Assembly: GCF_003334815.1 (NCBI RefSeq)
Contig: NZ_QOWO01000001.1
Strand: one strand, 5' to 3'
DNA from: Escherichia coli
GTDB taxonomy: Bacteria; Pseudomonadota; Gammaproteobacteria; Enterobacterales; Enterobacteriaceae
DNA length: 64,000 nucleotides
Positions 10,683 to 56,241 of this stretch are shown piece by piece. The position numbers and the translations under genes are program-made. The notes beneath the pieces are model-generated. The model saw only the letters and a program-made list of their open reading frames with translations, searched no databases and was not told the origin of the DNA. Within the stretch, counting starts at the first letter, position 1. Each line of letters starts with the position of its first letter.

Positions 10683-11963
10683 GTGAAACATCTGACAGAA
10701 ATGGTGAGACAGCACAAAGCGGGCAAAACAAATGGAATTTATGCCGTTTGTTCCGCACATCCGCTGGTGCTGGAGGCTGCAATCCGCTACGCCAGTGCAA
10801 ACCAAACGCCGTTACTGATTGAAGCAACCTCCAATCAGGTAGACCAGTTCGGCGGTTATACCGGAATGACGCCCGCCGATTTTCGCGGCTTTGTTTGTCA
10901 GCTCGCCGACTCGTTGAATTTCCCGCAGGATGCGTTGATTCTGGGTGGTGACCATCTGGGGCCAAACCGCTGGCAAAACCTGCCGGCCGCTCAGGCAATG
11001 GCCAATGCCGATGATTTGATTAAAAGCTACGTTGCGGCAGGATTCAAAAAAATCCACCTTGATTGCAGCATGTCCTGTCAGGACGATCCGATTCCCTTAA
11101 CTGATGACATCGTGGCTGAACGCGCCGCCCGTCTGGCGAAAGTGGCGGAAGAAACCTGTCTTGAACACTTTGGCGAAGCCGATCTGGAGTATGTCATTGG
11201 TACCGAAGTGCCGGTACCTGGCGGCGCGCATGAAACCTTAAGCGAGCTGGCGGTCACCACGCCGGATGCCGCCCGCGCCACGCTGGAAGCCCATCGTCAC
11301 GCCTTTGAAAAGCAAGGTTTGAATGCCATCTGGCCACGCATCATTGCCCTGGTGGTTCAACCCGGCGTCGAATTCGATCACACCAACGTTATTGATTATC
11401 AGCCCGCCAAAGCGAGCGCCTTAAGCCAGATGGTCGAAAACTACGAAACGCTGATTTTCGAAGCGCACTCTACCGATTATCAAACGCCGCAATCGCTGCG
11501 CCAGCTGGTGATTGACCACTTTGCCATTCTGAAAGTTGGCCCAGCGCTGACCTTCGCCCTGCGTGAAGCTCTGTTCTCTCTGGCGGCGATTGAAGAAGAA
11601 CTGGTGCCAGCGAAAGCCTGTTCTGGTCTGCGTCAGGTGCTGGAAGACGTGATGCTCGACCGCCCGGAATACTGGCAAAGCCACTACCACGGTGACGGCA
11701 ACGCGCGTCGTCTGGCGCGTGGTTATAGCTACTCGGATCGCGTGCGCTATTACTGGCCGGACAGCCAGATTGATGACGCTTTCGCTCATCTGGTACGTAA
11801 TCTGGCGGATTCACCAATTCCGCTGCCGCTGATCAGCCAGTATCTGCCGCTGCAGTACGTGAAAGTTCGCTCCGGCGAGCTGCAGCCAACGCCACGGGAA
11901 CTCATTATCAACCATATTCAGGACATCCTGGCGCAGTACCACACAGCCTGTGAAGGCCAATAA
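10683..11963 (+). CDS. kbaZ: Tagatose-bisphosphate aldolase non-catalytic subunit
   Basis: 426-aa ORF; apparent GTG start at 10683. Confidence 0.9.
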
Positions 11964-11985
11964 GCAAAACAAAGAGGAACACGCT

Positions 11986-12459
11986 ATGCCAAATATTGTT
12001 TTAAGCCGGATTGATGAACGCTTGATTCACGGTCAGGTCGGCGTTCAATGGGTCGGATTTGCGGGGGCAAATCTGGTGCTGGTAGCCAACGATGAGGTTG
12101 CCGAAGATCCGGTACAACAAAACCTGATGGAAATGGTACTGGCAGAAGGGATCGCCGTACGTTTCTGGACGCTGCAAAAAGTTATCGACAACATTCATCG
12201 CGCCGCCGATCGACAGAAAATCCTGCTGGTTTGTAAAACACCCGCCGATTTCCTGACGCTGGTGAAAGGTGGCGTTCCGGTGAATCGCATTAACGTTGGC
12301 AATATGCACTACGCCAATGGCAAACAACAAATCGCCAAAACGGTTTCTGTGGATGCGGGCGATATCGCAGCATTTAACGACCTGAAAACCGCTGGGGTGG
12401 AATGCTTCGTTCAGGGCGTCCCGACAGAGCCTGCTGTGGACCTCTTTAAATTACTTTGA
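11986..12459 (+). CDS. agaV: PTS N-acetylgalactosamine-specific IIB component
   Basis: ORF 11950..12459; start placed at MPNIVLSRIDERLIHGQVG, the conserved mannose-family IIB N-terminus. Confidence 0.85.
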   Translation: MPNIVLSRIDERLIHGQVGVQWVGFAGANLVLVANDEVAEDPVQQNLMEMVLAEGIAVRFWTLQKVIDNIHRAADRQKILLVCKTPADFLTLVKGGVPVNRINVGNMHYANGKQQIAKTVSVDAGDIAAFNDLKTAGVECFVQGVPTEPAVDLFKLL

Positions 12460-12469
12460 GGGATTCATC

Positions 12470-13249
12470 ATGGAAATCAGCCTGTTGCAGGCATTTGCGT
12501 TGGGCATTATCGCCTTTATCGCTGGCCTGGATATGTTTAACGGCCTAACCCATATGCACCGCCCGGTGGTCCTCGGCCCGTTGGTCGGGCTGGTACTTGG
12601 CGATCTGCATACCGGAATTTTAACCGGCGGTACGCTGGAACTGGTGTGGATGGGGCTGGCCCCGCTGGCGGGCGCACAGCCGCCTAACGTGATTATCGGT
12701 ACTATCGTCGGCACGGCGTTTGCCATTACTACTGGCGTGAAACCCGATGTCGCAGTAGGTGTCGCCGTACCTTTCGCTGTCGCAGTACAGATGGGGATTA
12801 CCTTCCTGTTCTCGGTGATGTCCGGCGTGATGTCTCGCTGCGACCGGATGGCGGAGAACGCCGATACTCGCGGCATTGAACGCGTGAACTATCTGGCACT
12901 GCTGGCACTCGGCATTTTCTATTTTCTCTGCGCTTTCCTGCCTATCTACTTCGGCGCGGAACATGCAAAAACCATCATTGATGTCCTGCCGCAACGATTA
13001 ATCGACGGCCTCGGCGTCGCGGGCGGCATCATGCCAGCAATCGGTTTTGCCGTGCTGCTGAAAATCATGATGAAAAACGTCTACATCCCCTACTTCATCC
13101 TGGGCTTTGTTGCCGCCGCCTGGCTCAAGTTACCAGTGCTGGCTATTGCTGCCGCTGCGCTGGCGATGGCGCTGATCGACTTGCTGCGTAAATCTCCTGA
13201 ACCGACTCAACCTGCGGCACAGAAAGAGGAATTTGAAGATGGCATCTAA
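12470..13249 (+). CDS. agaW: PTS N-acetylgalactosamine-specific IIC component, full length
   Basis: 259-aa polytopic membrane ORF of the mannose-family IIC type. Confidence 0.85.
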   Translation: MEISLLQAFALGIIAFIAGLDMFNGLTHMHRPVVLGPLVGLVLGDLHTGILTGGTLELVWMGLAPLAGAQPPNVIIGTIVGTAFAITTGVKPDVAVGVAVPFAVAVQMGITFLFSVMSGVMSRCDRMAENADTRGIERVNYLALLALGIFYFLCAFLPIYFGAEHAKTIIDVLPQRLIDGLGVAGGIMPAIGFAVLLKIMMKNVYIPYFILGFVAAAWLKLPVLAIAAAALAMALIDLLRKSPEPTQPAAQKEEFEDGI

Positions 13250-14117
13250 TCAAACCACCCTGCCGAACGTCAGTGAAAACGAAGAAACATTGCTGACTGG
13301 CGTCAATGAAAACGTGTATGAAGATCAGAGCATTGGCGCGGAGCTGACGAAAAAAGATATCAACCGCGTCGCCTGGCGTTCCATGCTGTTACAAGCGTCT
13401 TTTAACTACGAACGTATGCAGGCTTCTGGCTGGTTGTACGGTCTGCTGCCTGCTCTGAAAAAGATCCACACTAATAAACGCGACCTGGCGCGCGCCATGA
13501 AGGGGCATATGGGTTTCTTCAATACCCATCCGTTTCTGGTGACGTTTGTTATCGGCATTATCCTTGCGATGGAGCGTTCTAAGCAGGACGTTAACAGTAT
13601 TCAGAGCACCAAAATTGCCGTCGGTGCGCCGCTTGGCGGGATTGGCGATGCAATGTTCTGGCTAACGCTACTGCCGATTTGTGGCGGGATTGGAGCCAGT
13701 CTGGCATTGCAAGGCTCCATTCTTGGCGCAGTCGTCTTTATTGTGCTGTTCAACGTGGTACACCTGGGGCTGCGTTTTGGTCTGGCGCATTATGCTTACC
13801 GCATGGGCGTGGCGGCGATTCCACTGATTAAAGCGAATACCAAAAAAGTCGGCCATGCTGCGTCTATCGTTGGGATGACGGTAATCGGTGCGCTGGTGGC
13901 AACCTATGTTCGTTTAAGCACCACGCTGGAAATCACGGCGGGCGACGCAGTGGTTAAGTTACAGGCTGATGTTATCGACAAACTGATGCCGGCCTTCTTA
14001 CCGTTGGTCTACACCCTGACCATGTTTTGGTTGGTACGCCGCGGCTGGAGTCCGCTGCGTCTGATTGCAGTTACCGTGGTTCTCGGCATCGTCGGTAAAT
14101 TCTGCCATTTCCTTTAA
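13233..14117 (+). CDS. agaE: PTS N-acetylgalactosamine-specific IID component
   Basis: 294-aa ORF of the mannose-family IID type, overlapping the agaW 3' end; exact start uncertain. Confidence 0.8.
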   Translation: MKMASNQTTLPNVSENEETLLTGVNENVYEDQSIGAELTKKDINRVAWRSMLLQASFNYERMQASGWLYGLLPALKKIHTNKRDLARAMKGHMGFFNTHPFLVTFVIGIILAMERSKQDVNSIQSTKIAVGAPLGGIGDAMFWLTLLPICGGIGASLALQGSILGAVVFIVLFNVVHLGLRFGLAHYAYRMGVAAIPLIKANTKKVGHAASIVGMTVIGALVATYVRLSTTLEITAGDAVVKLQADVIDKLMPAFLPLVYTLTMFWLVRRGWSPLRLIAVTVVLGIVGKFCHFL

Positions 14118-14134
14118 ATACAATGAGGTATTAG

Positions 14135-14569
14135 ATGTTAAGTATTATTTTGACAGGGCATGGCGGGTTTGCCAGCGGCATGGAAAAAGCAATGAAGCAA
14201 ATTCTCGGTGAGCAATCGCAGTTTATCGCCATCGATTTTCCGGAAACCTCAAGCACCGCGCTGCTTACATCGCAGCTTGAAGAGGCCATCGCCCAACTGG
14301 ATTGTGAAGACGGCATTGTTTTTCTGACGGATTTGCTGGGCGGCACGCCGTTTCGCGTAGCTTCAACGCTGGCGATGCAAAAACCGGGCTGTGAAGTGAT
14401 CACCGGCACCAATTTGCAACTGCTACTGGAGATGGTGCTGGAGCGCGAAGGGTTAAGCGGTGAAGAATTCCGTGTACAGGCGCTGGAGTGTGGACACCGA
14501 GGGCTGACCAGTCTGGTGGACGAGTTAGGCCGCTGCCATGAAGAATGTCCGGTCGAGGAAGGAATATGA
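14135..14569 (+). CDS. agaF: PTS IIA component (mannose family)
   Basis: 144-aa ORF with the IIA-Man fold signature LTGHGGFASG. Confidence 0.85.
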   Translation: MLSIILTGHGGFASGMEKAMKQILGEQSQFIAIDFPETSSTALLTSQLEEAIAQLDCEDGIVFLTDLLGGTPFRVASTLAMQKPGCEVITGTNLQLLLEMVLEREGLSGEEFRVQALECGHRGLTSLVDELGRCHEECPVEEGI

Positions 14570-15699
14570 CACACGTTCTGCGCGCCAGAAGGCTGCTGAC
14601 TGAAGAGGGATGGCTCGATGACCATCAGTTGCGTATTGCTGACGGTGTCATCGCAGCAATCGAACCGATTCCAGCGGGCGTGACTGAACGCGATGCGGAA
14701 CTGCTCTGCCCTGCTTACATCGACACCCATGTACACGGTGGTGCGGGCGTTGATGTAATGGATGACGCGCCGGATGTACTCGACAAGCTGGCAATGCACA
14801 AGGCACGCGAAGGTGTCGGCAGTTGGTTACCGACCACCGTAACCACGCCGCTTAATACCATTCATGCGGCGCTGAAACGTATTGCTCAACGTTGCCAACG
14901 CGGCGGACCTGGTGCGCAAGTGCTGGGGAGTTATCTCGAAGGACCGTACTTCACGCCGCAGAATAAAGGCGCGCATCCGCCGGAGTTGTTTCGCGAGCTT
15001 GAAATTGCCGAGCTGGATCAGTTGATTGCCGTTTCTCAGCACACCTTACGTGTGGTAGCGCTGGCACCGGAAAAAGAAGGGGCATTGCAGGCCATCCGCC
15101 ATCTTAAACAGCAAAACGTAAGGGTGATGCTGGGGCATAGCGCGGCGACCTGGCAACAAACCCGCGCCGCATTTGATGCTGGTGCCGACGGCCTGGTGCA
15201 TTGCTATAACGGGATGACAGGTTTACATCACCGCGAACCGGGAATGGTTGGCGCGGGATTAACGGACAAGCGCGCCTGGCTGGAACTGATAGCCGATGGT
15301 CATCATGTGCATCCGGCGGCAATGTCGCTGTGTTGTTGCTGTGCGAAAGAGAGAATCGTACTGATCACCGACGCGATGCAGGCAGCTGGGATGCCGGATG
15401 GTCGCTATACGTTATGTGGTGAAGAAGTGCAGATGCACGGTGGCGTTGTCCGTACCGCGTCTGGTGGGCTGGCGGGCAGTACGCTGTCTGTTGATGCGGC
15501 AGTGCGCAATATGGTCGAGTTGACGGGCGTAACGCCTGCGGAAGCCATCCATATGGCGTCGCTGCATCCGGCGCGAATGCTGGGTGTTGATGGTGTTCTG
15601 GGATCGCTTAAACCGGGCAAACGCGCCAGCGTCGTTGCGCTGGATAGCGGGCTACATGTGCAACAAATCTGGATTCAGGGTCAATTAGCTTCGTTTTGA
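14566..15699 (+). CDS. agaA: N-acetylgalactosamine-6-phosphate deacetylase, full length
   Basis: ORF 14545..15699; start taken at MTHVLRARRL (377 aa); NagA-like amidohydrolase. Confidence 0.85.
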   Translation: MTHVLRARRLLTEEGWLDDHQLRIADGVIAAIEPIPAGVTERDAELLCPAYIDTHVHGGAGVDVMDDAPDVLDKLAMHKAREGVGSWLPTTVTTPLNTIHAALKRIAQRCQRGGPGAQVLGSYLEGPYFTPQNKGAHPPELFRELEIAELDQLIAVSQHTLRVVALAPEKEGALQAIRHLKQQNVRVMLGHSAATWQQTRAAFDAGADGLVHCYNGMTGLHHREPGMVGAGLTDKRAWLELIADGHHVHPAAMSLCCCCAKERIVLITDAMQAAGMPDGRYTLCGEEVQMHGGVVRTASGGLAGSTLSVDAAVRNMVELTGVTPAEAIHMASLHPARMLGVDGVLGSLKPGKRASVVALDSGLHVQQIWIQGQLASF

Positions 15700-15774
15700 T
15701 AGTTTGCTCCTTTATTGGGCCTTCACTTCCCCCGTAAGGCCTTTCTTTTTCTTTCGTTTTGATCTGTGCAGCGG

Positions 15775-15862
15775 TGTCGGATGCGACGCTAACGCGTCTT
15801 ATCCGACCTACAGTTGGTGACCGCAAGGCCGGATAAAGCGTTTGCGCCGCATCCAGCAATCC
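15775..15862. repeat. REP-type extragenic palindromic elements
   Basis: gcgacgctaacgcgtcttatccgacctac and ggccggataaagcgtttgcgccgcatcc motifs. Confidence 0.6.
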
Positions 15863-16049
15863 CTTTTGCTTCCTTTATCTTTTCTTTCAACGATCACAAA
15901 TTTCGTTTTATTTCTTTTTTCTCCATTGAACTTTCAGTTTCTTTTCTATAGATTTTAATCAACGAAAGACATCACCAAGTGAAATGAAACGAAAGGCAAG
16001 TGAAAGCGACAACGCCCGACGTCAAGTTCATCAGACTAAGGATTGAGTT
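15863..16049 (+). promoter_or_regulatory. agaS promoter region with TTTCGTTT / AAACGAAAG motif repeats (candidate AgaR operator)
   Basis: tttcgttttatttc, aacgaaagac and gaaatgaaacgaaagg upstream of agaS. Confidence 0.5.
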
Positions 16050-17204
16050 ATGCCAGAAAATTACACCCCTGCTGCCGCCGCAACCGGTACATGGACTGAA
16101 GAAGAGATCCGCCATCAGCCTCGCGCATGGATCCGTTCACTCACCAACATCGACGCGCTACGTTCCGCGCTCAATAACTTCCTTGAACCGTTACTGCGCA
16201 AAGAGAATCTGCGGATCATCCTGACCGGAGCCGGAACGTCGGCATTTATCGGTGACATCATCGCGCCGTGGCTCGCCAGCCATACCGGTAAAAACTTCAG
16301 CGCCGTACCGACCACCGATCTGGTCACCAATCCGATGGACTACCTGAACCCAGCTCATCCGCTGCTGTTGATCTCCTTCGGTCGATCCGGCAACAGCCCG
16401 GAAAGCGTCGCAGCCGTGGAACTGGCAAATCAATTTGTACCGGAATGCTATCACCTGCCGATCACCTGCAACGAAGCGGGCGCTCTTTACCAAAACGCGA
16501 TCAACAGCGATAACGCGTTTGCCCTGCTGATGCCCGCAGAAACGCACGATCGCGGCTTTGCGATGACCAGCAGCATTACCACCATGATGGCCAGCTGCCT
16601 CGCGGTTTTCGCACCTGAGACGATCAACAGCCAAACCTTCCGCGACGTGGCGGATCGTTGCCAGGCGATCCTGACCTCACTGGGCGATTTCAGCGAAGGT
16701 GTGTTTGGTTACGCACCGTGGAAACGGATCGTTTATCTCGGTAGCGGTGGCTTACAGGGCGCAGCACGCGAGTCGGCGCTGAAAGTGCTGGAACTGACGG
16801 CGGGTAAACTGGCGGCCTTTTATGATTCTCCAACCGGATTCCGTCATGGACCAAAATCGCTGGTCGATGACGAAACGCTGGTGGTGGTATTTGTCTCCAG
16901 CCACCCTTACACCCGTCAGTATGATCTTGATCTGCTGGCTGAACTTCGCCGTGACAACCAGGCAATGCGTGTAATCGCCATCGCCGCGGAAAGCAGCGAC
17001 ATCGTCGCTGCCGGTCCACATATCATCCTGCCACCGTCACGTCACTTTATCGACGTTGAGCAGGCATTTTGCTTCCTGATGTACGCCCAGACGTTTGCAC
17101 TGATGCAGTCGCTGCACATGGGCAATACGCCGGATACCCCATCAGCCAGTGGCACCGTTAACCGCGTGGTGCAAGGCGTAATCATTCATCCGTGGCAGGC
17201 ATAA
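16050..17204 (+). CDS. agaS: Sugar isomerase (SIS-domain) AgaS, putative galactosamine-6-phosphate deaminase/isomerase
   Basis: 384-aa ORF with SIS domains. Confidence 0.9.
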   Translation: MPENYTPAAAATGTWTEEEIRHQPRAWIRSLTNIDALRSALNNFLEPLLRKENLRIILTGAGTSAFIGDIIAPWLASHTGKNFSAVPTTDLVTNPMDYLNPAHPLLLISFGRSGNSPESVAAVELANQFVPECYHLPITCNEAGALYQNAINSDNAFALLMPAETHDRGFAMTSSITTMMASCLAVFAPETINSQTFRDVADRCQAILTSLGDFSEGVFGYAPWKRIVYLGSGGLQGAARESALKVLELTAGKLAAFYDSPTGFRHGPKSLVDDETLVVVFVSSHPYTRQYDLDLLAELRRDNQAMRVIAIAAESSDIVAAGPHIILPPSRHFIDVEQAFCFLMYAQTFALMQSLHMGNTPDTPSASGTVNRVVQGVIIHPWQA

Positions 17205-18077
<873 letters not shown>

Positions 18078-18243
18078 TCATTAGTTTTTTATGATTTATC
18101 CCAATGTACTTCCCGATTAATATCGGGGAGTGCCTTAATGGAAAAGGAGATAACTAAACCTTAATAAATACATCACTACAATATCGCAACAATAATATAT
18201 TTAAAAAAATTATATTATTCAACTTTATGGTGAGGATTACACA

Positions 18244-18720
18244 ATGACCAGTCCAAATATTCTCTTAACCCGTATTGATAACCGTCTGGTTCACGGTCAG
18301 GTTGGCGTGACCTGGACATCCACCATCGGTGCAAATCTGCTGGTAGTCGTGGATGATGTTGTCGCTAACGATGATATTCAACAGAAATTAATGGGTATTA
18401 CCGCGGAAACCTACGGCTTTGGCATTCGTTTCTTTACTATCGAAAAAACCATTAACGTCATCGGCAAAGCTGCACCACATCAGAAGATCTTCCTGATTTG
18501 CCGTACGCCACAAACGGTACGTAAATTGGTAGAAGGTGGTATTGACCTGAAAGATGTCAACGTCGGCAATATGCATTTCTCGGAAGGGAAAAAGCAAATC
18601 AGCAGTAAAGTTTATGTCGATGACCAGGATCTCACGGACTTACGTTTTATTAAACAACGTGGCGTGAATGTTTTCATTCAGGACGTCCCTGGCGATCAAA
18701 AAGAACAAATCCCTGACTAA
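18244..18720 (+). CDS. agaB: PTS galactosamine-specific IIB component
   Basis: 158-aa ORF paralogous to agaV (RIDNRLVHGQVG). Confidence 0.9.
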   Translation: MTSPNILLTRIDNRLVHGQVGVTWTSTIGANLLVVVDDVVANDDIQQKLMGITAETYGFGIRFFTIEKTINVIGKAAPHQKIFLICRTPQTVRKLVEGGIDLKDVNVGNMHFSEGKKQISSKVYVDDQDLTDLRFIKQRGVNVFIQDVPGDQKEQIPD

Positions 18721-18758
18721 ATCTAAAATCGCCTTAATATTGGTTTGAGGTAATAAAA

Positions 18759-19562
18759 ATGCATGAAATAACCCTACTTCAGGGATTATCCCTGGCGGCG
18801 TTAGTTTTTGTTCTGGGGATTGATTTTTGGCTGGAAGCCTTATTTTTATTCCGCCCGATAATCGTTTGTACCCTAACTGGCGCTATTCTCGGTGATATTC
18901 AGACTGGCTTAATTACCGGTGGTCTGACAGAGTTGGCTTTCGCCGGATTAACCCCTGCAGGTGGTGTTCAGCCGCCCAACCCGATTATGGCGGGTCTGAT
19001 GACCACCGTCATTGCATGGTCTACGGGCGTTGATGCCAAAACAGCAATTGGTCTTGGCCTGCCGTTTAGTTTGTTAATGCAGTACGTCATTCTGTTCTTC
19101 TATTCCGCTTTCTCATTATTTATGACCAATGCCGATAAATGCGCGAAAGAGGCGGATACGGCAGCGTTTTCCCGGCTTAACTGGACAACGATGCTCATCG
19201 TCGCTTCAGCGTATGCGGTGATTGCTTTCCTCTGTACTTACCTGGCACAGGGGGCGATGCAGGCGCTGGTGAAAGCGATGCCCGCCTGGCTGACCCACGG
19301 CTTTGAAGTGGCTGGCGGTATTCTGCCTGCCGTTGGTTTTGGCTTGCTGCTGCGCGTAATGTTCAAAGCGCAATATATCCCTTACCTGATCGCCGGTTTC
19401 CTGTTTGTTTGCTACATCCAGGTCAGCAACCTGTTGCCGGTTGCCGTACTGGGCGCAGGCTTTGCGGTGTATGAGTTTTTCAATGCGAAATCCCGGCAGC
19501 AAGCGCAACCGCAGCCCGTTGCCAGTAAAAATGAAGAAGAGGACTACAGCAATGGGATCTGA
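18759..19562 (+). CDS. agaC: PTS galactosamine-specific IIC component
   Basis: 267-aa membrane ORF paralogous to agaW. Confidence 0.9.
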   Translation: MHEITLLQGLSLAALVFVLGIDFWLEALFLFRPIIVCTLTGAILGDIQTGLITGGLTELAFAGLTPAGGVQPPNPIMAGLMTTVIAWSTGVDAKTAIGLGLPFSLLMQYVILFFYSAFSLFMTNADKCAKEADTAAFSRLNWTTMLIVASAYAVIAFLCTYLAQGAMQALVKAMPAWLTHGFEVAGGILPAVGFGLLLRVMFKAQYIPYLIAGFLFVCYIQVSNLLPVAVLGAGFAVYEFFNAKSRQQAQPQPVASKNEEEDYSNGI

Positions 19563-20343
19563 AATCAGTAAAAAAGATATCACCCGTCTGGGCTTTCGTT
19601 CGTCGCTGCTGCAAGCGAGCTTTAACTACGAAAGGATGCAGGCGGGCGGTTTTACCTGGGCGATGTTGCCGATCCTGAAAAAGATTTATAAGGACGACAA
19701 ACCGGGCTTAAGCGCGGCGATGAAAGATAACCTCGAATTTATTAATACCCACCCGAATCTGGTCGGATTCCTGATGGGGTTATTAATTTCGATGGAAGAA
19801 AAAGGAGAAAACCGCGACACCATTAAAGGCCTCAAAGTGGCACTGTTTGGCCCAATCGCCGGGATTGGCGATGCGATTTTCTGGTTTACTTTGTTGCCGA
19901 TTATGGCGGGAATTTGCTCATCATTTGCCAGCCAGGGAAACCTGCTGGGGCCGATTCTATTTTTCGCCGTTTACCTGCTTATCTTTTTCCTGCGCGTCGG
20001 CTGGACCCACGTCGGTTATTCAGTCGGCGTGAAGGCGATCGATAAAGTGCGAGAGAACTCGCAGATGATTGCCCGTTCGGCAACCATCCTCGGGATCACG
20101 GTAATCGGCGGGCTGATCGCTTCGTATGTGCATATTAACGTGGTGACATCGTTTGCCATCGACAATACCCACAGCGTTGCGCTGCAGCAGGATTTCTTCG
20201 ATAAAGTCTTCCCGAACATTTTACCGATGGCCTACACCCTGCTGATGTATTACTTCCTGCGGGTGAAAAAAGCGCATCCGGTGCTGTTAATCGGCGTGAC
20301 TTTTGTGCTCTCTATTGTTTGTTCCGCATTCGGCATTTTGTAA
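19552..20343 (+). CDS. agaD: PTS galactosamine-specific IID component
   Basis: ORF 19405..20343; start placed at MGSEISKKDITRLGF (263 aa), overlapping the agaC stop. Confidence 0.85.
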   Translation: MGSEISKKDITRLGFRSSLLQASFNYERMQAGGFTWAMLPILKKIYKDDKPGLSAAMKDNLEFINTHPNLVGFLMGLLISMEEKGENRDTIKGLKVALFGPIAGIGDAIFWFTLLPIMAGICSSFASQGNLLGPILFFAVYLLIFFLRVGWTHVGYSVGVKAIDKVRENSQMIARSATILGITVIGGLIASYVHINVVTSFAIDNTHSVALQQDFFDKVFPNILPMAYTLLMYYFLRVKKAHPVLLIGVTFVLSIVCSAFGIL

Positions 20344-21099
20344 ATGGAACGAGGCACTGCGTCTGGTGGTGCCTCTTTACTTAAGGAATTTCATCCTGTG
20401 CAAACCCTTCAGCAAGTTGAAAACTATACGGCGTTAAGTGAACGTGCCAGCGAATATTTATTGGCCGTGATCCGTAGCAAACCGAATGCCGTGATTTGCC
20501 TGGCGACCGGAGCCACGCCATTACTGACGTATCATTATCTGGTAGAAAAAATCCACCAGCAGCAGGTTGATGTCAGCCAGCTCACCTTCGTGAAGCTCGA
20601 CGAATGGGTGGATCTGCCATTAACGATGCCAGGCACCTGCGAAACTTTCCTGCAACAGCATATCGTGCAGCCGCTGGGGCTACGTGAAGACCAGCTCATC
20701 AGCTTTCGCTCCGAAGAGATAAATGAGACAGAGTGCGAACGGGTAACGAACCTGATTGCGCGCAAAGGCGGTCTGGATTTATGCGTTCTCGGATTGGGGA
20801 AAAACGGTCATCTTGGGCTGAACGAACCGGGAGAAAGCCTGCAACCGGCCTGCCATATCAGTCAACTTGATGCCAGAACACAGCAACATGAGATGTTAAA
20901 AACCGCGGGTCGCCCCGTGACTCGTGGGATCACCTTAGGCCTGAAGGATATTCTCAATGCCCGCGAAGTTTTGTTACTGGTGACTGGCGAAGGAAAGCAG
21001 GATGCGACAGATCGTTTTCTCACGGATAAAGTCTCTACCGCTATCCCGGCTTCATTTTTATGGCTGCACAGTAACTTTATTTGTTTAATTAACACCTAA
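20344..21099 (+). CDS. agaI: Galactosamine-6-phosphate isomerase/deaminase (NagB-like)
   Basis: 251-aa ORF starting directly after the agaD stop. Confidence 0.85.
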   Translation: MERGTASGGASLLKEFHPVQTLQQVENYTALSERASEYLLAVIRSKPNAVICLATGATPLLTYHYLVEKIHQQQVDVSQLTFVKLDEWVDLPLTMPGTCETFLQQHIVQPLGLREDQLISFRSEEINETECERVTNLIARKGGLDLCVLGLGKNGHLGLNEPGESLQPACHISQLDARTQQHEMLKTAGRPVTRGITLGLKDILNAREVLLLVTGEGKQDATDRFLTDKVSTAIPASFLWLHSNFICLINT

Positions 21100-21499
21100 C
21101 CAGATGAAAAATTTGCTCAAAATGTTTAAATTAACTTATGTAACAGTCACGCATTATATTAAATAACATTTGACTGGGTTGAACATAACGCCGATAGCAA
21201 AAGGAGTTATGTTCAACAATTTAATTTTAGATATACATATAACTTGTTCTATTAATAAATCACCTCGTATTCTGACTCGCCCCCTGGCGCAGCAAAGTCA
21301 GGCATTTATACTCTTTTGAATACATAGAAAATTGATATCAATATAATGAAAATATCAAATATTTGCATATAAATATAATCTTAAAGTTCAGTCTATTTAA
21401 TGTTCAATGAAATATTTCTGCCTGTATAATCTTTAAAGATGTTGAACATATATTCACATTAAATATGATTATGTACTTGTTACAAGGATAAGGTTATAT
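21100..21499 (+). promoter_or_regulatory. Strongly AT-rich upstream region of the yra fimbrial operon
   Basis: 400 bp of AT-rich non-coding DNA with A/T tracts upstream of yraH; typical of silenced chaperone-usher fimbrial promoters. Confidence 0.45.
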
Positions 21500-22084
21500 A
21501 TGAATAAAGTTACAAAAACAGCTATTGCGGGCTTACTTGCGCTTTTCGCAGGTAATGCCGCTGCAACCGATGGTGAAATAGTTTTTGATGGCGAGATTTT
21601 AAAATCCGCTTGTGAAATCAATGACTCTGATAAGAAAATTGAAGTTGCTCTTGGTCACTATAATGCCGAACAGTTTCGTAATATTGGCGAGCGTAGCCCA
21701 AAAATTCCATTCACTATTCCTTTAGTTAACTGCCCAATGACTGGGTGGGAGCACGATAACGGCAACGTTGAAGCGTCTTTCCGTCTATGGCTGGAAACGC
21801 GAGATAATGGCACCGTCCCTAACTTCCCTAATCTGGCAAAAGTAGGCTCTTTTGCTGGCATAGCGGCAACAGGTGTGGGTATCCGTATTGACGATGCGGA
21901 AAGCGGAAACATTATGCCACTGAATGCTATGGGCAATGATAACACGGTTTATCAGATCCCGGCGGAATCCAATGGTATTGTCAATGTTGACCTCATCGCT
22001 TACTACGTATCAACCGTAGTTCCATCAGAAATCACCCCAGGGGAAGCAGACGCTATCGTTAACGTAACGCTGGATTACCGTTAA
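21500..22084 (+). CDS. yraH: Fimbrial subunit-like protein
   Basis: 194-aa ORF with signal peptide and fimbrial subunit C-terminus. Confidence 0.85.
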   Translation: MNKVTKTAIAGLLALFAGNAAATDGEIVFDGEILKSACEINDSDKKIEVALGHYNAEQFRNIGERSPKIPFTIPLVNCPMTGWEHDNGNVEASFRLWLETRDNGTVPNFPNLAKVGSFAGIAATGVGIRIDDAESGNIMPLNAMGNDNTVYQIPAESNGIVNVDLIAYYVSTVVPSEITPGEADAIVNVTLDYR

Positions 22085-22090
22085 TACGTT

Positions 22091-22127
22091 AGGGCGTTAT
22101 CTGACCTGTCAGATAACGCCCTTTTCC
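22091..22127 (+). terminator. Hairpin after yraH (possible intra-operon attenuator/terminator)
   Basis: Inverted repeat ggcgttatctgacc / gtcagataacgcc followed by cttttcc. Confidence 0.5.
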
Positions 22128-22163
22128 TTCCTCTTTCTCGTTGTATCAGGTTGAAAAATAACT

Positions 22164-22859
22164 ATGTCAAAACGAACATTCGCGGTGATATTAACCTTGT
22201 TGTGTAGCTTCTGTATTGGCCAGGCGCTTGCAGGAGGAATCGTTTTACAGCGAACGCGAGTGATCTATGATGCCAGCCGCAAAGAGGCTGCGTTACCTGT
22301 CGCAAACAAAGGCGCAGAAACGCCTTATTTACTGCAATCATGGGTAGATAATATAGATGGTAAAAGCCGTGCCCCATTTATTATAACCCCACCGCTATTT
22401 CGTCTTGAGGCTGGCGATGACTCATCACTGCGAATTATTAAAACAGCTGATAACCTGCCTGAAAATAAAGAGTCGCTGTTCTACATTAATGTTCGTGCCA
22501 TTCCAGCAAAGAAAAAATCAGATGATGTTAATGCTAACGAGTTGACGCTGGTATTTAAAACACGGATCAAAATGTTTTATCGCCCCGCACACCTGAAGGG
22601 ACGGGTAAACGATGCGTGGAAATCACTGGAATTTAAACGTAGTGACCATTCACTCAATATATATAACCCAACTGAATATTACGTCGTATTTGCCGGACTG
22701 GCAGTCGATAAAACCGATCTCACAAGCAAAATTGAATATATCGCGCCCGGAGAACATAAACAGTTACCACTTCCTGCATCTGGCGGAAAGAACGTGAAAT
22801 GGGCTGCGATCAATGATTATGGCGGCAGTTCCGGGACAGAAACTCGTCCACTGCAATAA
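22164..22859 (+). CDS. yraI: Periplasmic fimbrial chaperone (PapD-like)
   Basis: 231-aa ORF with signal peptide and chaperone motifs. Confidence 0.85.
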
Positions 22860-22887
22860 AAAATATAAAAACACAGGTCATCAGGGA

Positions 22888-25413
22888 ATGCCACAACGAC
22901 ACCACCAGGGACATAAACGCACACCGAAACAGTTGGCGCTCATCATCAAACGTTGTTTGCCGATGGTGCTCACTGGCAGCGGCATGCTTTGCACTACCGC
23001 TAACGCCGAAGAGTATTATTTCGACCCCATTATGCTGGAAACCACAAAAAGTGGTATGCAAACAACCGATCTGTCGCGTTTTTCAAAAAAATATGCACAA
23101 CTACCAGGAACTTATCAGGTTGATATCTGGCTGAATAAAAAGAAGGTTTCACAGAAAAAAATTACATTTACCGCCAATGCAGAGCAACTTCTGCAGCCAC
23201 AGTTTACGGTAGAACAACTACGTGAGCTGGGTATTAAGGTGGATGAAATCCCGGCGCTGGCTGAAAAAGATGACGATAGCGTGATCAACTCGCTTGAACA
23301 AATCATTCCCGGTACAGCTGCTGAATTTGATTTCAATCATCAGCAACTTAATTTGAGCATTCCCCAAATTGCACTGTACCGTGATGCAAGAGGTTACGTC
23401 TCCCCTTCTCGTTGGGACGATGGTATACCAACGCTGTTTACCAACTACTCGTTTACAGGTTCTGATAACCGTTACCGCCAGGGCAATCGTAGCCAACGAC
23501 AGTACCTGAATATGCAAAATGGTGCTAATTTTGGCCCCTGGCGATTACGCAACTATTCCACATGGACACGCAACGATCAGACATCAAGCTGGAATACCAT
23601 CAGTAGTTATTTACAACGTGATATCAAGGCGTTGAAGTCTCAGTTGCTTCTGGGAGAAAGCGCCACCAGCGGCAGTATTTTTTCCAGCTACACCTTTACT
23701 GGCGTGCAACTCGCTTCCGACGATAATATGTTGCCAAACAGCCAGCGCGGATTTGCCCCAACGGTACGCGGTATCGCAAACAGTAGTGCAATCGTGACTA
23801 TCAGGCAAAATGGTTATGTGATCTATCAAAGCAACGTGTCAGCGGGTGCCTTTGAAATTAACGATCTCTACCCCTCTTCCAACAGCGGCGATTTAGAAGT
23901 CACGATTGAAGAAAGTGACGGTACACAACGTCGCTTTATCCAGCCTTATTCTTCATTACCCATGATGCAGCGACCTGGGCATCTAAAGTATAGCGCGACC
24001 GCTGGACGCTATCGCGCTGATGCAAACAGTGATAGCAAGGAACCCGAATTTGCTGAAGCCACGGCAATATATGGTTTGAATAATACTTTTACGCTGTATG
24101 GCGGCCTGCTCGGTTCTGAAGATTATTATGCGCTGGGGATCGGTATCGGCGGCACACTTGGCGCACTGGGCGCACTGGGCGCGTTGTCGATGGATATCAA
24201 CAGAGCTGACACCCAATTCGATAACCAGCACTCTTTTCATGGCTATCAATGGCGTACGCAGTACATCAAAGATATCCCGGAAACCAACACCAATATCGCT
24301 GTCAGCTACTATCGCTATACCAACGATGGCTATTTTAGTTTTAATGAAGCCAATACCCGCAATTGGGACTATAACAGTCGCCAAAAAAGTGAAATTCAAT
24401 TCAACATCAGCCAGACAATATTTGATGGGGTAAGTCTGTATGCCTCCGGTTCGCAGCAAGACTATTGGGGCAATAACGATAAAAACAGGAATATCTCTGT
24501 TGGGGTTTCCGGCCAGCAATGGGGAGTTGGTTACAGCCTGAATTATCAATACAGCCGCTACACTGATCAAAATAATGACCGCGCACTCTCTTTGAATCTC
24601 AGTATTCCGTTAGAACGCTGGTTACCGCGTAGCCGGGTTTCCTATCAGATGACCAGCCAGAAAGATCGCCCAACCCAACATGAAATGCGTCTTGATGGCT
24701 CACTGCTGGATGATGGTCGCCTGAGCTATAGCCTGGAACAAAGTCTGGATGACGATAACAACCATAACAGTAGCCTGAACGCCAGTTACCGTTCACCTTA
24801 TGGCACCTTCAGTGCCGGATACAGCTACGGTAATGACAGCAGCCAATACAATTACGGCGTTACCGGCGGCGTGGTTATCCATCCTCATGGCGTGACGCTC
24901 TCGCAATATCTGGGCAACGCTTTTGCGCTTATCGATGCTAACGGAGCATCTGGCGTGAGGATACAAAACTATCCGGGGATTGCTACCGATCCTTTTGGCT
25001 ATGCAGTGGTTCCTTATCTCACAACTTATCAGGAAAACCGTCTCTCGGTAGATACTACGCAGCTGCCCGATAACGTCGATCTTGAACAAACAACACAGTT
25101 TGTGGTGCCCAACAGAGGTGCAATGGTAGCGGCGCGTTTCAACGCCAATATCGGTTATCGCGTACTTGTTACAGTCAGCGATCGCAACGGTAAACCGTTG
25201 CCCTTTGGCGCTCTTGCCAGCAACGATGATACAGGGCAACAAAGTATCGTCGATGAGGGCGGCATACTATATCTCTCTGGGATATCGAGTAAATCACAAA
25301 GCTGGACTGTACGCTGGGGAAATCAGGCAGATCAACAATGTCAGTTTGCTTTCAGTACACCGGATTCAGAACCTACAACCTCTGTATTACAAGGCACAGC
25401 GCAGTGCCATTAA
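22888..25413 (+). CDS. yraJ: Outer membrane fimbrial usher
   Basis: ORF 22813..25413; start placed at the first internal ATG (MPQRHH...); exact start uncertain. Confidence 0.8.
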   Translation: MPQRHHQGHKRTPKQLALIIKRCLPMVLTGSGMLCTTANAEEYYFDPIMLETTKSGMQTTDLSRFSKKYAQLPGTYQVDIWLNKKKVSQKKITFTANAEQLLQPQFTVEQLRELGIKVDEIPALAEKDDDSVINSLEQIIPGTAAEFDFNHQQLNLSIPQIALYRDARGYVSPSRWDDGIPTLFTNYSFTGSDNRYRQGNRSQRQYLNMQNGANFGPWRLRNYSTWTRNDQTSSWNTISSYLQRDIKALKSQLLLGESATSGSIFSSYTFTGVQLASDDNMLPNSQRGFAPTVRGIANSSAIVTIRQNGYVIYQSNVSAGAFEINDLYPSSNSGDLEVTIEESDGTQRRFIQPYSSLPMMQRPGHLKYSATAGRYRADANSDSKEPEFAEATAIYGLNNTFTLYGGLLGSEDYYALGIGIGGTLGALGALGALSMDINRADTQFDNQHSFHGYQWRTQYIKDIPETNTNIAVSYYRYTNDGYFSFNEANTRNWDYNSRQKSEIQFNISQTIFDGVSLYASGSQQDYWGNNDKNRNISVGVSGQQWGVGYSLNYQYSRYTDQNNDRALSLNLSIPLERWLPRSRVSYQMTSQKDRPTQHEMRLDGSLLDDGRLSYSLEQSLDDDNNHNSSLNASYRSPYGTFSAGYSYGNDSSQYNYGVTGGVVIHPHGVTLSQYLGNAFALIDANGASGVRIQNYPGIATDPFGYAVVPYLTTYQENRLSVDTTQLPDNVDLEQTTQFVVPNRGAMVAARFNANIGYRVLVTVSDRNGKPLPFGALASNDDTGQQSIVDEGGILYLSGISSKSQSWTVRWGNQADQQCQFAFSTPDSEPTTSVLQGTAQCH

Positions 25414-25423
25414 GGATAAAAAA

Positions 25424-26515
25424 ATGAAAAGAGCGCCTCTTATAACAGGTCTTTTGTTGATATCCACATCCTGCGCTTATGCCTCCTCAGGAGGGTGTGG
25501 AGCCGACAGCACTAGCGGTGCGACAAATTACAGCAGTGTGGTTGATGATGTTACGGTGAACCAGACAGATAACGTGACAGGACGGGAGTTTACCTCTGCA
25601 ACGCTAAGTAGCACTAACTGGCAATACGCCTGTTCCTGCTCTGCGGGTAAGGCAGTTAAACTTGTCTATATGGTCAGCCCCGTACTTACCACCACTGGAC
25701 ATCAGACAGGATATTACAAACTCAATGACAGCCTGGATATTAAAACCACATTACAGGCAAACGACATTCCAGGACTCACAACCGACCAGGTTGTCTCTGT
25801 TAACACCCGATTCACACAGATAAAAAACAACACGGTATATTCTGCTGCAACCCAAACGGGTGTTTGCCAGGGTGATACGTCTCGTTATGGACCCGTTAAT
25901 ATTGGTGCGAACACCACCTTTACCCTGTATGTCACCAAGCCATTTCTCGGCTCGATGACCATTCCGAAAACGGATATTGCCGTCATTAAAGGCGCGTGGG
26001 TCGATGGAATGGGAAGCCCGTCTACAGGTGACTTCCATGATTTAGTCAAGTTATCGATTCAGGGAAATCTCACCGCCCCACAGTCGTGCAAAATTAATCA
26101 GGGCGATGTTATTAAGGTTAATTTTGGATTCATCAATGGTCAGAAGTTTACCACCCGCAATGCCATGCCAGACGGTTTTACTCCAGTAGACTTTGATATC
26201 ACTTATGACTGTGGTGATACTTCAAAGATTAAAAACTCGTTGCAAATGCGCATCGACGGTACAACTGGGGTAGTAGACCAGTACAACCTGGTCGCCAGGC
26301 GAAGAAGTTCAGACAATGTGCCCGATGTCGGTATTCGTATTGAAAATCTCGGCGGCGGAGTTGCAAATATTCCTTTTCAGAACGGTATCCTTCCCGTTGA
26401 TCCTTCCGGGCATGGCACCGTCAATATGCGCGCCTGGCCAGTTAATCTGGTCGGTGGTGAGCTGGAAACAGGAAAATTTCAGGGCACAGCCACCATTACC
26501 GTCATCGTGCGGTAA
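25424..26515 (+). CDS. yraK: Fimbrial adhesin-like protein
   Basis: ORF 25166..26515; start at MKRAPLITGLLLISTSCAYA (signal peptide), 363 aa. Confidence 0.8.
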   Translation: MKRAPLITGLLLISTSCAYASSGGCGADSTSGATNYSSVVDDVTVNQTDNVTGREFTSATLSSTNWQYACSCSAGKAVKLVYMVSPVLTTTGHQTGYYKLNDSLDIKTTLQANDIPGLTTDQVVSVNTRFTQIKNNTVYSAATQTGVCQGDTSRYGPVNIGANTTFTLYVTKPFLGSMTIPKTDIAVIKGAWVDGMGSPSTGDFHDLVKLSIQGNLTAPQSCKINQGDVIKVNFGFINGQKFTTRNAMPDGFTPVDFDITYDCGDTSKIKNSLQMRIDGTTGVVDQYNLVARRRSSDNVPDVGIRIENLGGGVANIPFQNGILPVDPSGHGTVNMRAWPVNLVGGELETGKFQGTATITVIVR

Positions 26516-47424: not shown

Positions 47425-50097
47425 TTAAGCAATGGTACGTTGGATCTCGATGATTTCGAATACTTCGATCACATCGCCAGTGCGGACGTCGTTGTAGTTC
47501 TTAACGCCGATACCACATTCCATACCGTTACGGACTTCGTTAACGTCATCTTTGAAGCGGCGCAGGGACTCCAGCTCGCCTTCGTAGATAACCACGTTGT
47601 CACGCAGAACGCGGATCGGGTTGTGACGTTTAACCACACCTTCGGTAACCATACAGCCTGCGATGGCACCAAATTTCGGCGATTTGAACACGTCACGAAC
47701 TTCCGCCAGACCGATAATCTGCTGTTTCAGTTCCGGAGACAGCATACCGCTCATCGCCGCTTTCACTTCGTCAATCAGGTTATAGATGACGGAGTAGTAA
47801 CGCAGATCCAGGCTTTCCGCTTCAATCACTTTACGTGCAGAGGCATCAGCACGTACGTTAAAGCCAACCAGGATGGCGTTGGACGCCGCAGCCAGGGTGG
47901 CGTCGGTTTCGGTGATACCACCTACGCCAGAACCGATGATCTTCACTTTAACTTCGTCAGTAGACAGTTTCAGCAAGGAGTCGGAGATCGCTTCGACAGA
48001 ACCCTGTACGTCTGCCTTCAGGACGATATTCACTTCGTGAACTTCGCCTTCGGTCATGTTGGCGAACATGTTCTCGAGTTTAGATTTCTGCTGACGCGCC
48101 AGTTTAACTTCGCGGAATTTACCCTGACGATAGAGTGCAACTTCACGCGCTTTCTTCTCGTCACGTACAACGGTAACTTCATCACCCGCAGCCGGTACGC
48201 CGGACAGGCCGAGGATTTCCACCGGAATGGACGGACCCGCTTCCAGCACTTCCTGACCCAGTTCGTTACGCATCGCACGAACACGACCGTATTCGAAGCC
48301 ACACAGAACGATATCGCCCTTGTGCAGAGTACCTTCACGTACCAGAACGGTAGCAACCGGACCACGACCTTTATCGAGGAAGGATTCGATAACCGCACCG
48401 CTCGCCATACCTTTACGTACCGCTTTCAGCTCCAGAACTTCCGCCTGCAGCAGGATAGCGTCCAGCAGTTCATCGATACCGGTACCCGCTTTCGCAGATA
48501 CGTGTACGAACTGGCTTTCACCGCCCCACTCTTCCGGCAGGATGCCGTACTGGGAGAGTTCGTTCTTAACGCGATCCGGATCAGCTTCTGGTTTATCGAT
48601 CTTGTTCACTGCAACCACCACCGGTACCTGCGCCGCTTTCGCGTGCTGGATTGCTTCGATGGTCTGCGGCATCACACCGTCGTCGGCAGCAACAACCAGG
48701 ACTACGATGTCCGTTGCCTGCGCACCACGAGCACGCATTGAAGTAAACGCGGCGTGCCCCGGGGTGTCCAGGAAGGTGATCATGCCGTTTTCAGTTTCAA
48801 CGTGGTATGCACCAATGTGCTGGGTAATGCCGCCCGCTTCGCCAGAGGCCACTTTCGTTGAACGAATGTAGTCCAGCAGAGAGGTTTTACCGTGGTCAAC
48901 GTGACCCATGATGGTCACAACCGGCGCGCGCGGTTCAGCCGCAGCACCCGTGTCACGGTCGCTCATTACCGCCTCTTCCAGCTCGTTTTCACGACGCAGG
49001 ATAACTTTATGGCCCATCTCTTCAGCAACCAGCTGTGCGGTTTCCTGATCGATAACCTGGTTGATGGTTGCCATTGCGCCCAGTTTCATCATCGCTTTGA
49101 TGACCTGAGAGCCTTTAACCGCCATCTTGTTCGCCAGTTCGCCAACGGTGATAGTTTCGCCGATCACAACGTCACGGTTAACGGCCTGAGCAGGCTTCTG
49201 GAAGCCTTGCTGCAGCGAAGAACCTTTACGTTTTCCGCCTTTACCGCCACGTACTGCTGCGCGTGCTTCTTCACGATCAGCTTTTGATTCAGCGTGTTTG
49301 TTGCCTTTCTTCGGACGCGCTGCTTTCGCGTTACGACCACGGCCACGGCCGCCTTCGACTTCACGATCGCTTTCGTCTTCTGCCTGGCGAGCATGTTGAG
49401 AAGTAGTGACGTGATAATCGCTGGAATCTTCAGTCGGTTCCGCGTTATCAGTCCATTTGTTTTCTTCCGCCATACGACGTGCTTCTTCAGCAACGCGACG
49501 TGCTTCTTCTTCGAGTTTACGACGCGCTTCTTCTTCAGCTTTACGCTTGAGCTCTGCAGCTTCCTGCTCACGGCGGGCTTTTTCAGCCTGGGCGTTTTTA
49601 GTCATATCGTCTTGTTGATTGCTCACTTTGTCTTTTTCCGCAGCTTCACGTTTCGCTTGTTCAGCAGCTTCACGCTTAGCTTGTTCTGCGGCCTCACGTT
49701 CAGCTTTTTGTTGCGCCTCGCGTTTAGCCGATTCTTCTGCCTCACGACGGGCTTGCTCTTCCGCTTCACGCTGCGCTTGCTCTTCCGCTGCAAGGCGTTC
49801 AGCCTCTTGCGGATCGCGTTTCACAAAGGTGCGTTTCTTGCGGACTTCGATTTGTACCGATTTGCTTTTTCCACCGGTACCAGGAATGTTAAGGGTGCTG
49901 CGTGTTTTACGTTGCAGCGTCAATTTGTCCGGGCCTGAATTTTTCTGATTCAGGTGGTCAATCAAAGTCTGTTTCTCTTGTGCAGACACAGAGTCGTCAG
50001 CAGACTTCCGGATACCTGCATCAGCAAATTGCTGTACCAGGCGTTCCACGGAGGTCTGTCGCTCTGCGGCCAGCGTTTTAATCGTTACATCTGTCAT
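47425..50097 (-). CDS. infB: Translation initiation factor IF-2
   Basis: 890-aa ORF; GTPase motifs GHVDHGKT and DTPGH; repetitive charged N-terminal region. Confidence 0.95.
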
Positions 50098-52104: not shown

Positions 52105-52175
52105 ATAAAAAAAGGGCCTAAAGCCCAGTTATTCTGTAGTCAGATAACAAAAAACCCCGATAAATCGGGGCTTTA
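52105..52175 (-). terminator. Two hairpin+T-run elements between metY and rimP (partial terminator/attenuator)
   Basis: Minus-strand gggctttaggccc + T-run and ccccgatttatcgggg + T-run. Confidence 0.55.
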
Positions 52176-52295
52176 TATAACTGAACCCTATAACCGCAAC
52201 TGCGGTCTGGAGCACTTTCCAGAAGGATTTTTTCAAATCCCACTACGAAGGCCGAAGTCTTCACAGTATATTTGAAAAAGGACTCTAAGGGAAAG

Positions 52296-52372
<77 letters not shown>

Positions 52373-56154: not shown

Positions 56155-56241
56155 TGGTACCGAGGACGGGACTTGAACCCGTAAGCCCTATTGGGCACTA
56201 CCACCTCAAGGTAGCGTGTCTACCAATTCCACCACCTCGGC
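56155..56241 (-). tRNA. leuU: tRNA-Leu (GAG anticodon)
   Basis: Minus strand reads GCCGAGGTGGTGGAATTGGTAGACACGCTACCTTGAGGTGGTAGTGCCCAATAGGGCTTACGGGTTCAAGTCCCGTCCTCGGTACCA; long variable arm. Confidence 0.95.

Follow-up and report, generated by a model that had tools for sequence, protein, structure and literature searches.

The mannose PTS, ManXYZ, is the type member of the mannose/fructose/sorbose family of transporters and has a four-domain IIA/IIB/IIC/IID architecture. The Aga system of Escherichia coli, which takes up N-acetylgalactosamine (GalNAc) and galactosamine (GalN), has the same architecture and is matched by the family-level TIGR models. It is unlike ManXYZ in its substrate, GalNAc or GalN, and in having one IIA for two transporters. 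Furthermore, ManX is a fusion of IIA and IIB, whereas the locus described here encodes the two as separate proteins, AgaF (IIA) and AgaV (IIB).

The pathway has been worked out through the genetics of E. coli C and O157:H7, and its application here rests on near-identical sequence. The pathway, its phenotypes and its loss in K-12 are covered in four papers (PMC3668189, PMC9628945, PMC3045373, PMC4809568), through which we also take, at second hand, the results of Brinkkötter (2000) and Mukherjee (2008). By this scheme, EI and HPr would phosphorylate AgaF, the phosphate would move on to AgaV, and AgaW and AgaE, as IIC and IID, would import GalNAc as GalNAc-6-P. The GalN transporter AgaBCD would also use AgaF. 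GalNAc-6-P would be deacetylated to GalN-6-P by AgaA, or by NagA in its place, followed by deamination and isomerisation by AgaS to tagatose-6-P, which would be phosphorylated by PfkA to give a product that KbaY/KbaZ would cleave. The promoters PR, PZ and PS would be under AgaR repression. AgaA itself is dispensable, since nagA can substitute for it (PMC3668189).

Several strains deviate from this scheme. According to PMC3668189, PMC3045373 and PMC9628945, K-12 has lost agaE and agaF through a 2.3-kb deletion and keeps only truncated forms of agaW and agaA. Isolates of O157:H7 from the 2006 spinach outbreak carry a Gly91Ser change in AgaF, which is reported to make them Aga⁻ (PMC3668189, PMC4809568).

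The window analysed here is a stretch of 64,000 nucleotides from an E. coli contig (NZ_QOWO01000001.1). It contains a complete 13-gene aga/gam cluster, from agaR to agaI, at 9625–21099, in which all 13 genes are intact. The features discussed below are the following:

9625–10434, minus strand: agaR, DeoR-family regulon repressor, intact and identical in K-12, B, C and O157.
10683–11963, plus strand: kbaZ, intact and identical to that of K-12.
11986–12459, plus strand: agaV, GalNAc PTS subunit IIB, intact and identical in K-12.
12470–13249, plus strand: agaW, subunit IIC of the PTS GalNAc transporter, 259 residues, intact (open reading frame list and NF040757).
12840–12845: left-hand GCGACC of the 6-bp microhomology that marks the K-12 deletion endpoint (direct alignment).
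12846–15150: segment of 2305 bp with no counterpart in K-12 MG1655 (blastn and base-by-base extension against NC_000913.3).
13239–14117, plus strand: agaE, subunit IID of the PTS GalNAc transporter, 292 residues, intact (NF040760).
14135–14569, plus strand: agaF, the PTS IIA common to the GalNAc and GalN transporters, 144 residues, intact (NF040761).
14405–14407, plus strand: codon 91 of agaF, GGC (Gly), the wild-type Aga⁺ form (scripted check).
14566–15699, plus strand: agaA, GalNAc-6-phosphate deacetylase of the NagA family, 377 residues, intact (TIGR00221).
15145–15150: right-hand GCGACC of the 6-bp K-12 deletion microhomology (direct alignment).
16050–21099, plus strand: remainder of the cluster, to agaI, bearing three rare missense variants (open reading frame list and profile models).

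The four genes at the centre of the cluster, agaW, agaE, agaF and agaA, are tightly packed on the plus strand, and the span 12470–15699 runs exactly from the start of agaW to the stop of agaA. A Shine–Dalgarno-like GAGGG lies upstream of agaW, agaW and agaE overlap by 11 nt, and the stop of agaF and the start of agaA overlap in an ATGA. The mechanical open reading frame of agaE opens at a TTG (13233), 6 nt upstream of its start at 13239. In the open reading frame list and a scripted check, each of the four has start and stop codons, a length that is a multiple of three and no internal stop. The products match curated NCBIfam equivalog models: AgaW scores 410.5 bits (cut-off 300) over positions 1–249 of the 249 in NF040757, AgaE 617.6 bits (cut-off 500) over all of positions 1–292 of 292 in NF040760, AgaF 219 bits (cut-off 130) over positions 1–144 of 144 in NF040761, and AgaA 290 bits over the full length of the nagA model TIGR00221 (cut-off 225.65). 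AgaV matches its own equivalog end to end with 319.7 bits (cut-off 180). The IIA, IIB, IIC and IID of a GalNAc-specific Enzyme II are thus all present as separate, full-length proteins that score above the curated cut-offs.

AgaA retains the HxH in THVHGG, the Glu in LEGPY, the His residues in LGHS and VHCYN and the Asp in ITDAM when compared with the structures 7NUT and 2VHL; we take these positions to be the metal and catalytic ligands of NagA. AgaF is recognisably related to IIA-Man (1PDO, E = 1.3e-16), with its His9 aligned to the His that is conserved in the GTHG motif and its Gly91 to the conserved Gly of viaGvN. From these features, GalNAc transport by AgaVWEF and deacetylation by AgaA are predicted to be functional.

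The block is also colinear with that of other strains. Its nucleotide sequence aligns without gaps to ML35 (100% identity), B strain REL606 (98.98%), ATCC 8739 (98.76%) and O157:H7 F6294 (98.45%), and neither these four ungapped alignments nor the end-to-end model coverage revealed a frameshift or premature stop in agaW, agaE, agaF or agaA. The preliminary description of the locus had read all four genes as full-length, and this is borne out. AgaW is identical to WP_000406209.1 of ML35, AgaE to WP_001295548.1 of REL606 and F6294, and AgaF to WP_000948824.1 of ML35, REL606, ATCC 8739 and F6294. AgaW and AgaA differ by one and four residues, respectively, from those of the B, C and O157 strains, and both alleles are common, the exact sequence of each occurring on at least 1000 public contigs. 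From 12000 to 16200, the window is 100% identical to many RefSeq genomes, such as ML35, in which all the genes are annotated as intact coding sequences.

The same description held that Gly at AgaF residue 91 is the functional form, and PMC3668189 and PMC4809568 agree; the GGC codon in the window encodes this residue, in contrast to the Ser91 of the spinach-outbreak isolates. The window likewise differs from F6294, in which agaVWEFA is intact but agaC and agaI are interrupted by amber codons, at codons 8 and 72 respectively: both codons are CAG (Gln) in the window, so that the Gam⁻ amber alleles of O157:H7 (EDL933/Sakai type) are absent. None of the known loss-of-function alleles sought in the window (AgaF G91S, agaC Q8* and agaI Q72*) was present.

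In the MG1655 annotation, agaW and agaA are pseudogenes and agaE and agaF are missing. Direct alignment showed that the 2305-bp segment absent from MG1655 covers the 3′ two-thirds of agaW, the whole of agaE and agaF and the 5′ half of agaA. It is bounded by the two GCGACC copies, part of a longer repeat, CGCkGCGACC, that is identical at 9 of 10 positions. The deletion is out of frame and leaves the agaW′ and agaA′ pseudogenes. Since MG1655 lacks 12846–15150, it has neither agaE nor agaF and is Aga⁻ Gam⁻ (PMC3668189). The agaW′–agaA′ junction of K-12 (…TCTCGCTGCGACC|TGGCAACAA…) does not occur in the window, where the full 2305 bp is present between both copies of the repeat. The preliminary description had given this account of the K-12 deletion, and annotation, alignment and literature all bear it out.

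It had also called the source strain unlike K-12 at this locus, which holds for the deletion but not for the flanks. About 17 kb of flanking sequence differs from MG1655 by only seven SNPs and one 9-bp indel (99.9% identity). AgaR, KbaZ, AgaV, AgaS, AgaB and AgaD are identical in the two, as are the N-terminal 125 residues of AgaW and the C-terminal 167 residues of AgaA that K-12 retains. Because of this identity in the flanks, the window is in effect the pre-deletion haplotype of K-12, and having the exact pre-deletion sequence on such a haplotype fixes the K-12 endpoints at the 6-bp microhomology.

The intact form is by no means rare. The 12846–15150 segment is found at a coverage of at least 80% in 4931 of 5426 complete E. 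coli genomes (about 91%), which rules out the intact allele as a rarity. The K-12 junction is found in 371 of the same 5426, and the five listed among these were all K-12-sized. The intact block is the common and ancestral state in E. coli, and the K-12 deletion is the exception. As the intact form is present in about nine of ten sequenced strains, the observation is correct but ordinary.

In gene number, order, orientation and length, the cluster is the same as that of E. coli C (Brinkkötter et al. 2000; Hu et al. 2013, PMC3668189), for which ATCC 8739 stands here, and its synteny is identical to that of ML35, REL606 and ATCC 8739. AgaF and AgaR of ATCC 8739 are identical to those of the window and its other proteins are one to four residues apart. 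The differences are point changes only; of the two, it is the window that has KbaY A173G, AgaC K124N and AgaI A228D. We consider it very probable that the window carries the ordinary, ancestral and complete E. coli aga/gam regulon, as undeleted sequence on a K-12-like haplotype with a predicted Aga⁺ Gam⁺ phenotype, and that the K-12 allele was derived from it by a 2305-bp out-of-frame deletion between the two GCGACC microhomologies.

The three missense variants lie outside the agaW–agaA span. Each protein variant is found on 5–18 public contigs. An origin as artefacts or private mutations was rejected, since more than one public assembly encodes the exact proteins, the accession numbers being close to one another. 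An enrichment of SNPs in the cluster relative to ML35 was likewise rejected (4 of 10 SNPs in 18% of the 64-kb window, P ~0.09, an estimate).

It is conceivable, but improbable, that these variants weaken or abolish the pathway while the four genes stay intact, in which case the use of both sugars would suffer from KbaY A173G and that of GalN alone from AgaC K124N. A173G is the sole difference between KbaY and the crystallised AgaY (1GVF); the residue is Ala in three other aligned homologues of solved structure and lies within a conserved motif, seven residues ahead of its His, which is presumably a zinc ligand. AgaC K124N and AgaI A228D are rare in public data and absent from K-12, ML35, B, C, O157 and 52F4. 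In addition, strain 52F4, to which the right flank is most closely related, has an independent deletion from kbaZ′ to agaA, consistent with relaxed selection in the lineage. However, replacing Ala by Gly alters little, the variant has been maintained in several assemblies (18 contigs), and the SNPs in the cluster show no significant excess. Tagatose-bisphosphate aldolase can, moreover, come from GatY/GatZ in many strains. AgaI is dispensable (PMC3668189).

A further rare variant, C>T at 10611, lies in the agaR–kbaZ intergenic control region and is absent from K-12, ML35 and 52F4. It directly follows a CTTTCGTTTTATTTTTA stretch that is similar to the CTTTCGTTT repeats in this region, which we assume to be AgaR operator-like, and a CRP-like site, TGTGA-N6-TCAGA, lies about 30–45 nt upstream. 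This placement would suit a change in the expression of the kbaZ–agaVWEFA operon that makes the locus cryptic or constitutive. However, only a single base is affected, the operator consensus is putative, and agaR itself has a wild-type coding sequence; we consider this explanation highly improbable. In the spacer between agaA and agaS (15600–16100), a simple and insensitive consensus scan found no sigma-70-like promoter or terminator, a result that is uninformative because the spacer is identical to that of K-12.

The complete, ancestral regulon remains our preferred reading. There is perhaps a slight chance that a small natural clade closely related to K-12, marked by the rare derived changes KbaY A173G (in an otherwise invariant aldolase motif), AgaC K124N, AgaI A228D and the substitution beside the operator-like repeat ahead of kbaZ, is retuning or starting to lose the aga/gam pathway. 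In the calf isolate 52F4 the deletion, from kbaZ′ to agaA, amounts to about 3.5 kb, and as part of this doubtful scenario the near relatives 52F4 and K-12 (2305 bp) would each have become unable to take up GalNAc by a separate deletion at a microhomology. If so, agaVWEFA would be prone to repeated loss in this lineage.

The intact agaWEFA block is confirmed, yet it was already known, and all the points made here are either known or derivable from published genomes; the finding has little import beyond annotation. It does rule out a laboratory derivative of K-12 as the source strain. A derepressed Aga PTS can also transport glucose, which matters for engineered strains (PMC9628945). Judging from its genes, the strain is predicted to use mucin-derived GalNAc and GalN, a trait that would be relevant to gut colonisation.

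The block at 12470-15699 on the plus strand runs exactly from the first base of the agaW start codon to the last base of the agaA stop codon. It contains four genes, taken from the ORF list and a scripted check:

agaW, 12470-13249, plus strand, 259 aa
agaE, 13239-14117, plus strand, 292 aa
agaF, 14135-14569, plus strand, 144 aa
agaA, 14566-15699, plus strand, 377 aa

All four start with ATG, end in a stop codon and are divisible by 3 in length, and the scripted check found no internal stops in any of the four ORFs. There is an 11-nt overlap between agaW and agaE and an ATGA overlap between agaF and agaA, and a GAGG-type Shine-Dalgarno-like sequence lies 5' of all four starts, a spacing that resembles that of a translationally coupled operon. 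The proteins match NCBIfam models from the first to the last profile position, far beyond chance: AgaW (410.5 bits, cut-off 300), AgaE (617.6, cut-off 500) and AgaF (219, cut-off 130) each match their own curated model, and AgaA (290, cut-off 225.65) matches the nagA model TIGR00221. The ORF list, the scripted check and these end-to-end matches bear out the preliminary description, which had claimed four full-length genes here.

K-12 carries a deletion allele of this locus. The MG1655 annotation (NC_000913.3) lists agaW (402 nt) and agaA (504 nt) as pseudogenes and contains neither agaE nor agaF. Direct alignment showed that K-12 is collinear with 6769-12845 and again with 15151-26083, and it therefore lacks 12846-15150, a segment of 2305 bp. 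Because this length is not a multiple of three, K-12 AgaW' consists of 125 native residues and an 8-residue out-of-frame tail, followed by a stop. The hexamer GCGACC is found at both endpoints (12840-12845 and 15145-15150), with 9/10 positions identical over CGCkGCGACC, a signature that points to microhomology-mediated deletion. The 2.3-kb deletion makes K-12 unable to use N-acetylgalactosamine (Aga-) or galactosamine (Gam-), and E. coli C, with the full 13-gene cluster, is Aga+ Gam+ (PMC3668189, PMC9628945, PMC3045373; each citing Brinkkotter et al. 2000). Annotation, alignment and literature thus all agree with the earlier statement that K-12 has truncated agaW and agaA and lost agaE and agaF.

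The further statement that the source strain is not K-12-like at this locus holds for the deletion only and fails for the flanks, as the 17 kb around the deletion differ from MG1655 by just 7 SNPs and one 9-bp indel. AgaR, KbaZ, AgaV, AgaS, AgaB and AgaD of K-12 are identical to those of the window, and the retained portions of AgaW and AgaA match at every residue. Over all 64 kb, the window and ML35 share 99.97% identity. In effect, the window represents the pre-deletion haplotype of K-12.

The aga locus was also taken from B REL606, ATCC 8739 (which serves as the wild-type C strain in the literature; PMC9628945), O157:H7 F6294 and ML35. Nucleotide identity over the agaWEFA block is 98.98%, 98.76%, 98.45% and 100%, respectively, with no gaps in any of the four alignments, so that in the comparison with K-12, B, C and O157 suggested earlier agaWEFA proved intact and ungapped relative to the last three. 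AgaF is the same protein in 4/4 strains and AgaE in B, O157 and ML35. AgaW is one residue (T149I) and AgaA four residues apart from B, C and O157; in exactly this form, both proteins are common alleles, present on at least 1000 public contigs each.

AgaF codon 91 (14405-14407) is GGC, encoding the Gly that had been read there. Gly91 aligns to a conserved Gly of IIA-Man (1PDO), and AgaF His9 to the conserved His in its GTHG motif. That Gly91 is the functional form is in keeping with the 2006 spinach-outbreak O157:H7 isolates, which are Aga- because of AgaF Gly91Ser (PMC3668189, PMC4809568). Alignments to solved NagA enzymes showed that AgaA keeps the HxH, Glu, His, His and Asp motifs. These we take, from NagA structures, to be the metal or catalytic ligands.

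The entire aga/gam regulon is intact (agaR, kbaZ, agaV, agaWEFA, agaS, kbaY, agaBCD and agaI), and its ends are:

agaR, 9625-10434, minus strand, intact
agaI, ending at 21099, intact, the last gene of the regulon

The amber mutations behind the Gam- phenotype of O157:H7 EDL933/Sakai are absent: the window has CAG at codon 8 of agaC and codon 72 of agaI, whereas both are stops in F6294. Published genetics (PMC3668189) found agaS and the transporters to be essential, agaI to be dispensable and agaA likewise, because nagA takes its place. From the intact regulon, the absence of the amber alleles and these gene requirements, the source strain is predicted to be Aga+ Gam+.

Four changes outside 12470-15699 occur in none of K-12, ML35, B, C and O157:

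C>T, nt 10611, in the agaR-kbaZ intergenic control region (10435-10682)
KbaY A173G, codon 173 at 17733-17735, SNP at nt 17734
AgaC K124N, agaC codon 124, nt 19130
AgaI A228D, agaI codon 228, nt 21026

These rare variants are a caveat to the predicted phenotype, but a real loss of function through them is quite improbable. A173G is the sole difference between KbaY and the crystallised AgaY (1GVF) and falls in a 12-residue motif where three other aligned homologues keep the Ala, and AgaC K124N could affect galactosamine uptake. The C>T change lies immediately 3' of CTTTCGTTTTATTTTTA, which is among several repeats of the CTTTCGTTT type in the control region, and has a TGTGA-N6-TCAGA CRP-like site upstream of it at about 10567-10582; it might affect the kbaZ promoter or the binding of AgaR. 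The exact KbaY variant protein occurs on 18 public contigs, from several assemblies with neighbouring accession numbers, and the AgaC and AgaI variants on 6 and 5 contigs of the same assemblies; all three are real, natural variants and not errors. KbaY A173G is shared with 52F4 (NZ_CM147848.1), a calf isolate related to the source strain, while AgaC K124N and AgaI A228D occur in none of the compared reference strains, 52F4 included.

Several other features of the window were recorded. The PrlF-YhaV toxin-antitoxin pair adjoining agaR (prlF-yhaV, 8771-9570) is intact; elsewhere, yhaV carries an annotated internal stop in REL606 and an annotated frameshift in 52F4. In yraJ (22888-25413), which encodes a fimbrial usher, an in-frame 9-bp tandem duplication lies at 24160-24168 (GGCGCACTG repeated) relative to K-12 and ML35, and the ORF stays open; 52F4 also carries the duplication, in a yraJ of 2526 nt. 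A 113-bp tandem repeat at 1615-2007 (3.5 copies, 96% matches) overlaps the 3' end of rnpB (1985-2361, minus strand; RNase P RNA) and presumably corresponds to the known E. coli repeat array downstream of that gene. Short imperfect in-gene repeats at 40147-40242 and 49632-49706 (periods 33 and 24 nt), which coordinate mapping to ML35 places in the deaD 3' and infB 5' regions, look ordinary. The following RNAs, the first five being Rfam gathering-level matches, are as expected for a conserved chromosomal region:

SraG, 45310-45481
S15 leader, 45711-45825
naRNA4, 47338-47408
rimP leader, 52107-52207
greA leader, 62894-63015
two tRNAs, 52299-52372 and 56158-56241

Of the 5426 complete E. coli genomes counted, 4931 (about 91%) have 80% or more of the 2305-bp segment and 4945 show any match to it, against 371 (about 7%) with the contiguous K-12 junction. 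The intact allele is therefore what E. coli normally carries, with the K-12 state a derived exception. The junction carriers among the matches listed are ER1709, JM83, AML003_ev01, DCM200-113 and CY34, all with K-12-sized genomes of 4.56-4.63 Mb. In about 110 further genomes the segment is missing for other reasons, and 79 of these match no part of a 4.2-kb query (12000-16200). The block thus shows a well-studied regulon in its textbook, majority form, and is already known.

52F4 has a deletion of its own, of about 3.5 kb (equivalent to 11764-15262 of the window, its junction showing a 6-bp overlap), that joins the kbaZ 3' end to the terminal part of agaA, with the loss of agaV, agaW, agaE and agaF. 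It is independent of that in K-12 and represents a second route to losing the same transporter. K-12 and 52F4 together hint, tentatively, that close relatives have lost agaVWEFA repeatedly and independently by microhomology-mediated deletion, alongside rare missense variants in the clade, and this is the only, mildly interesting, thread to emerge from the locus.
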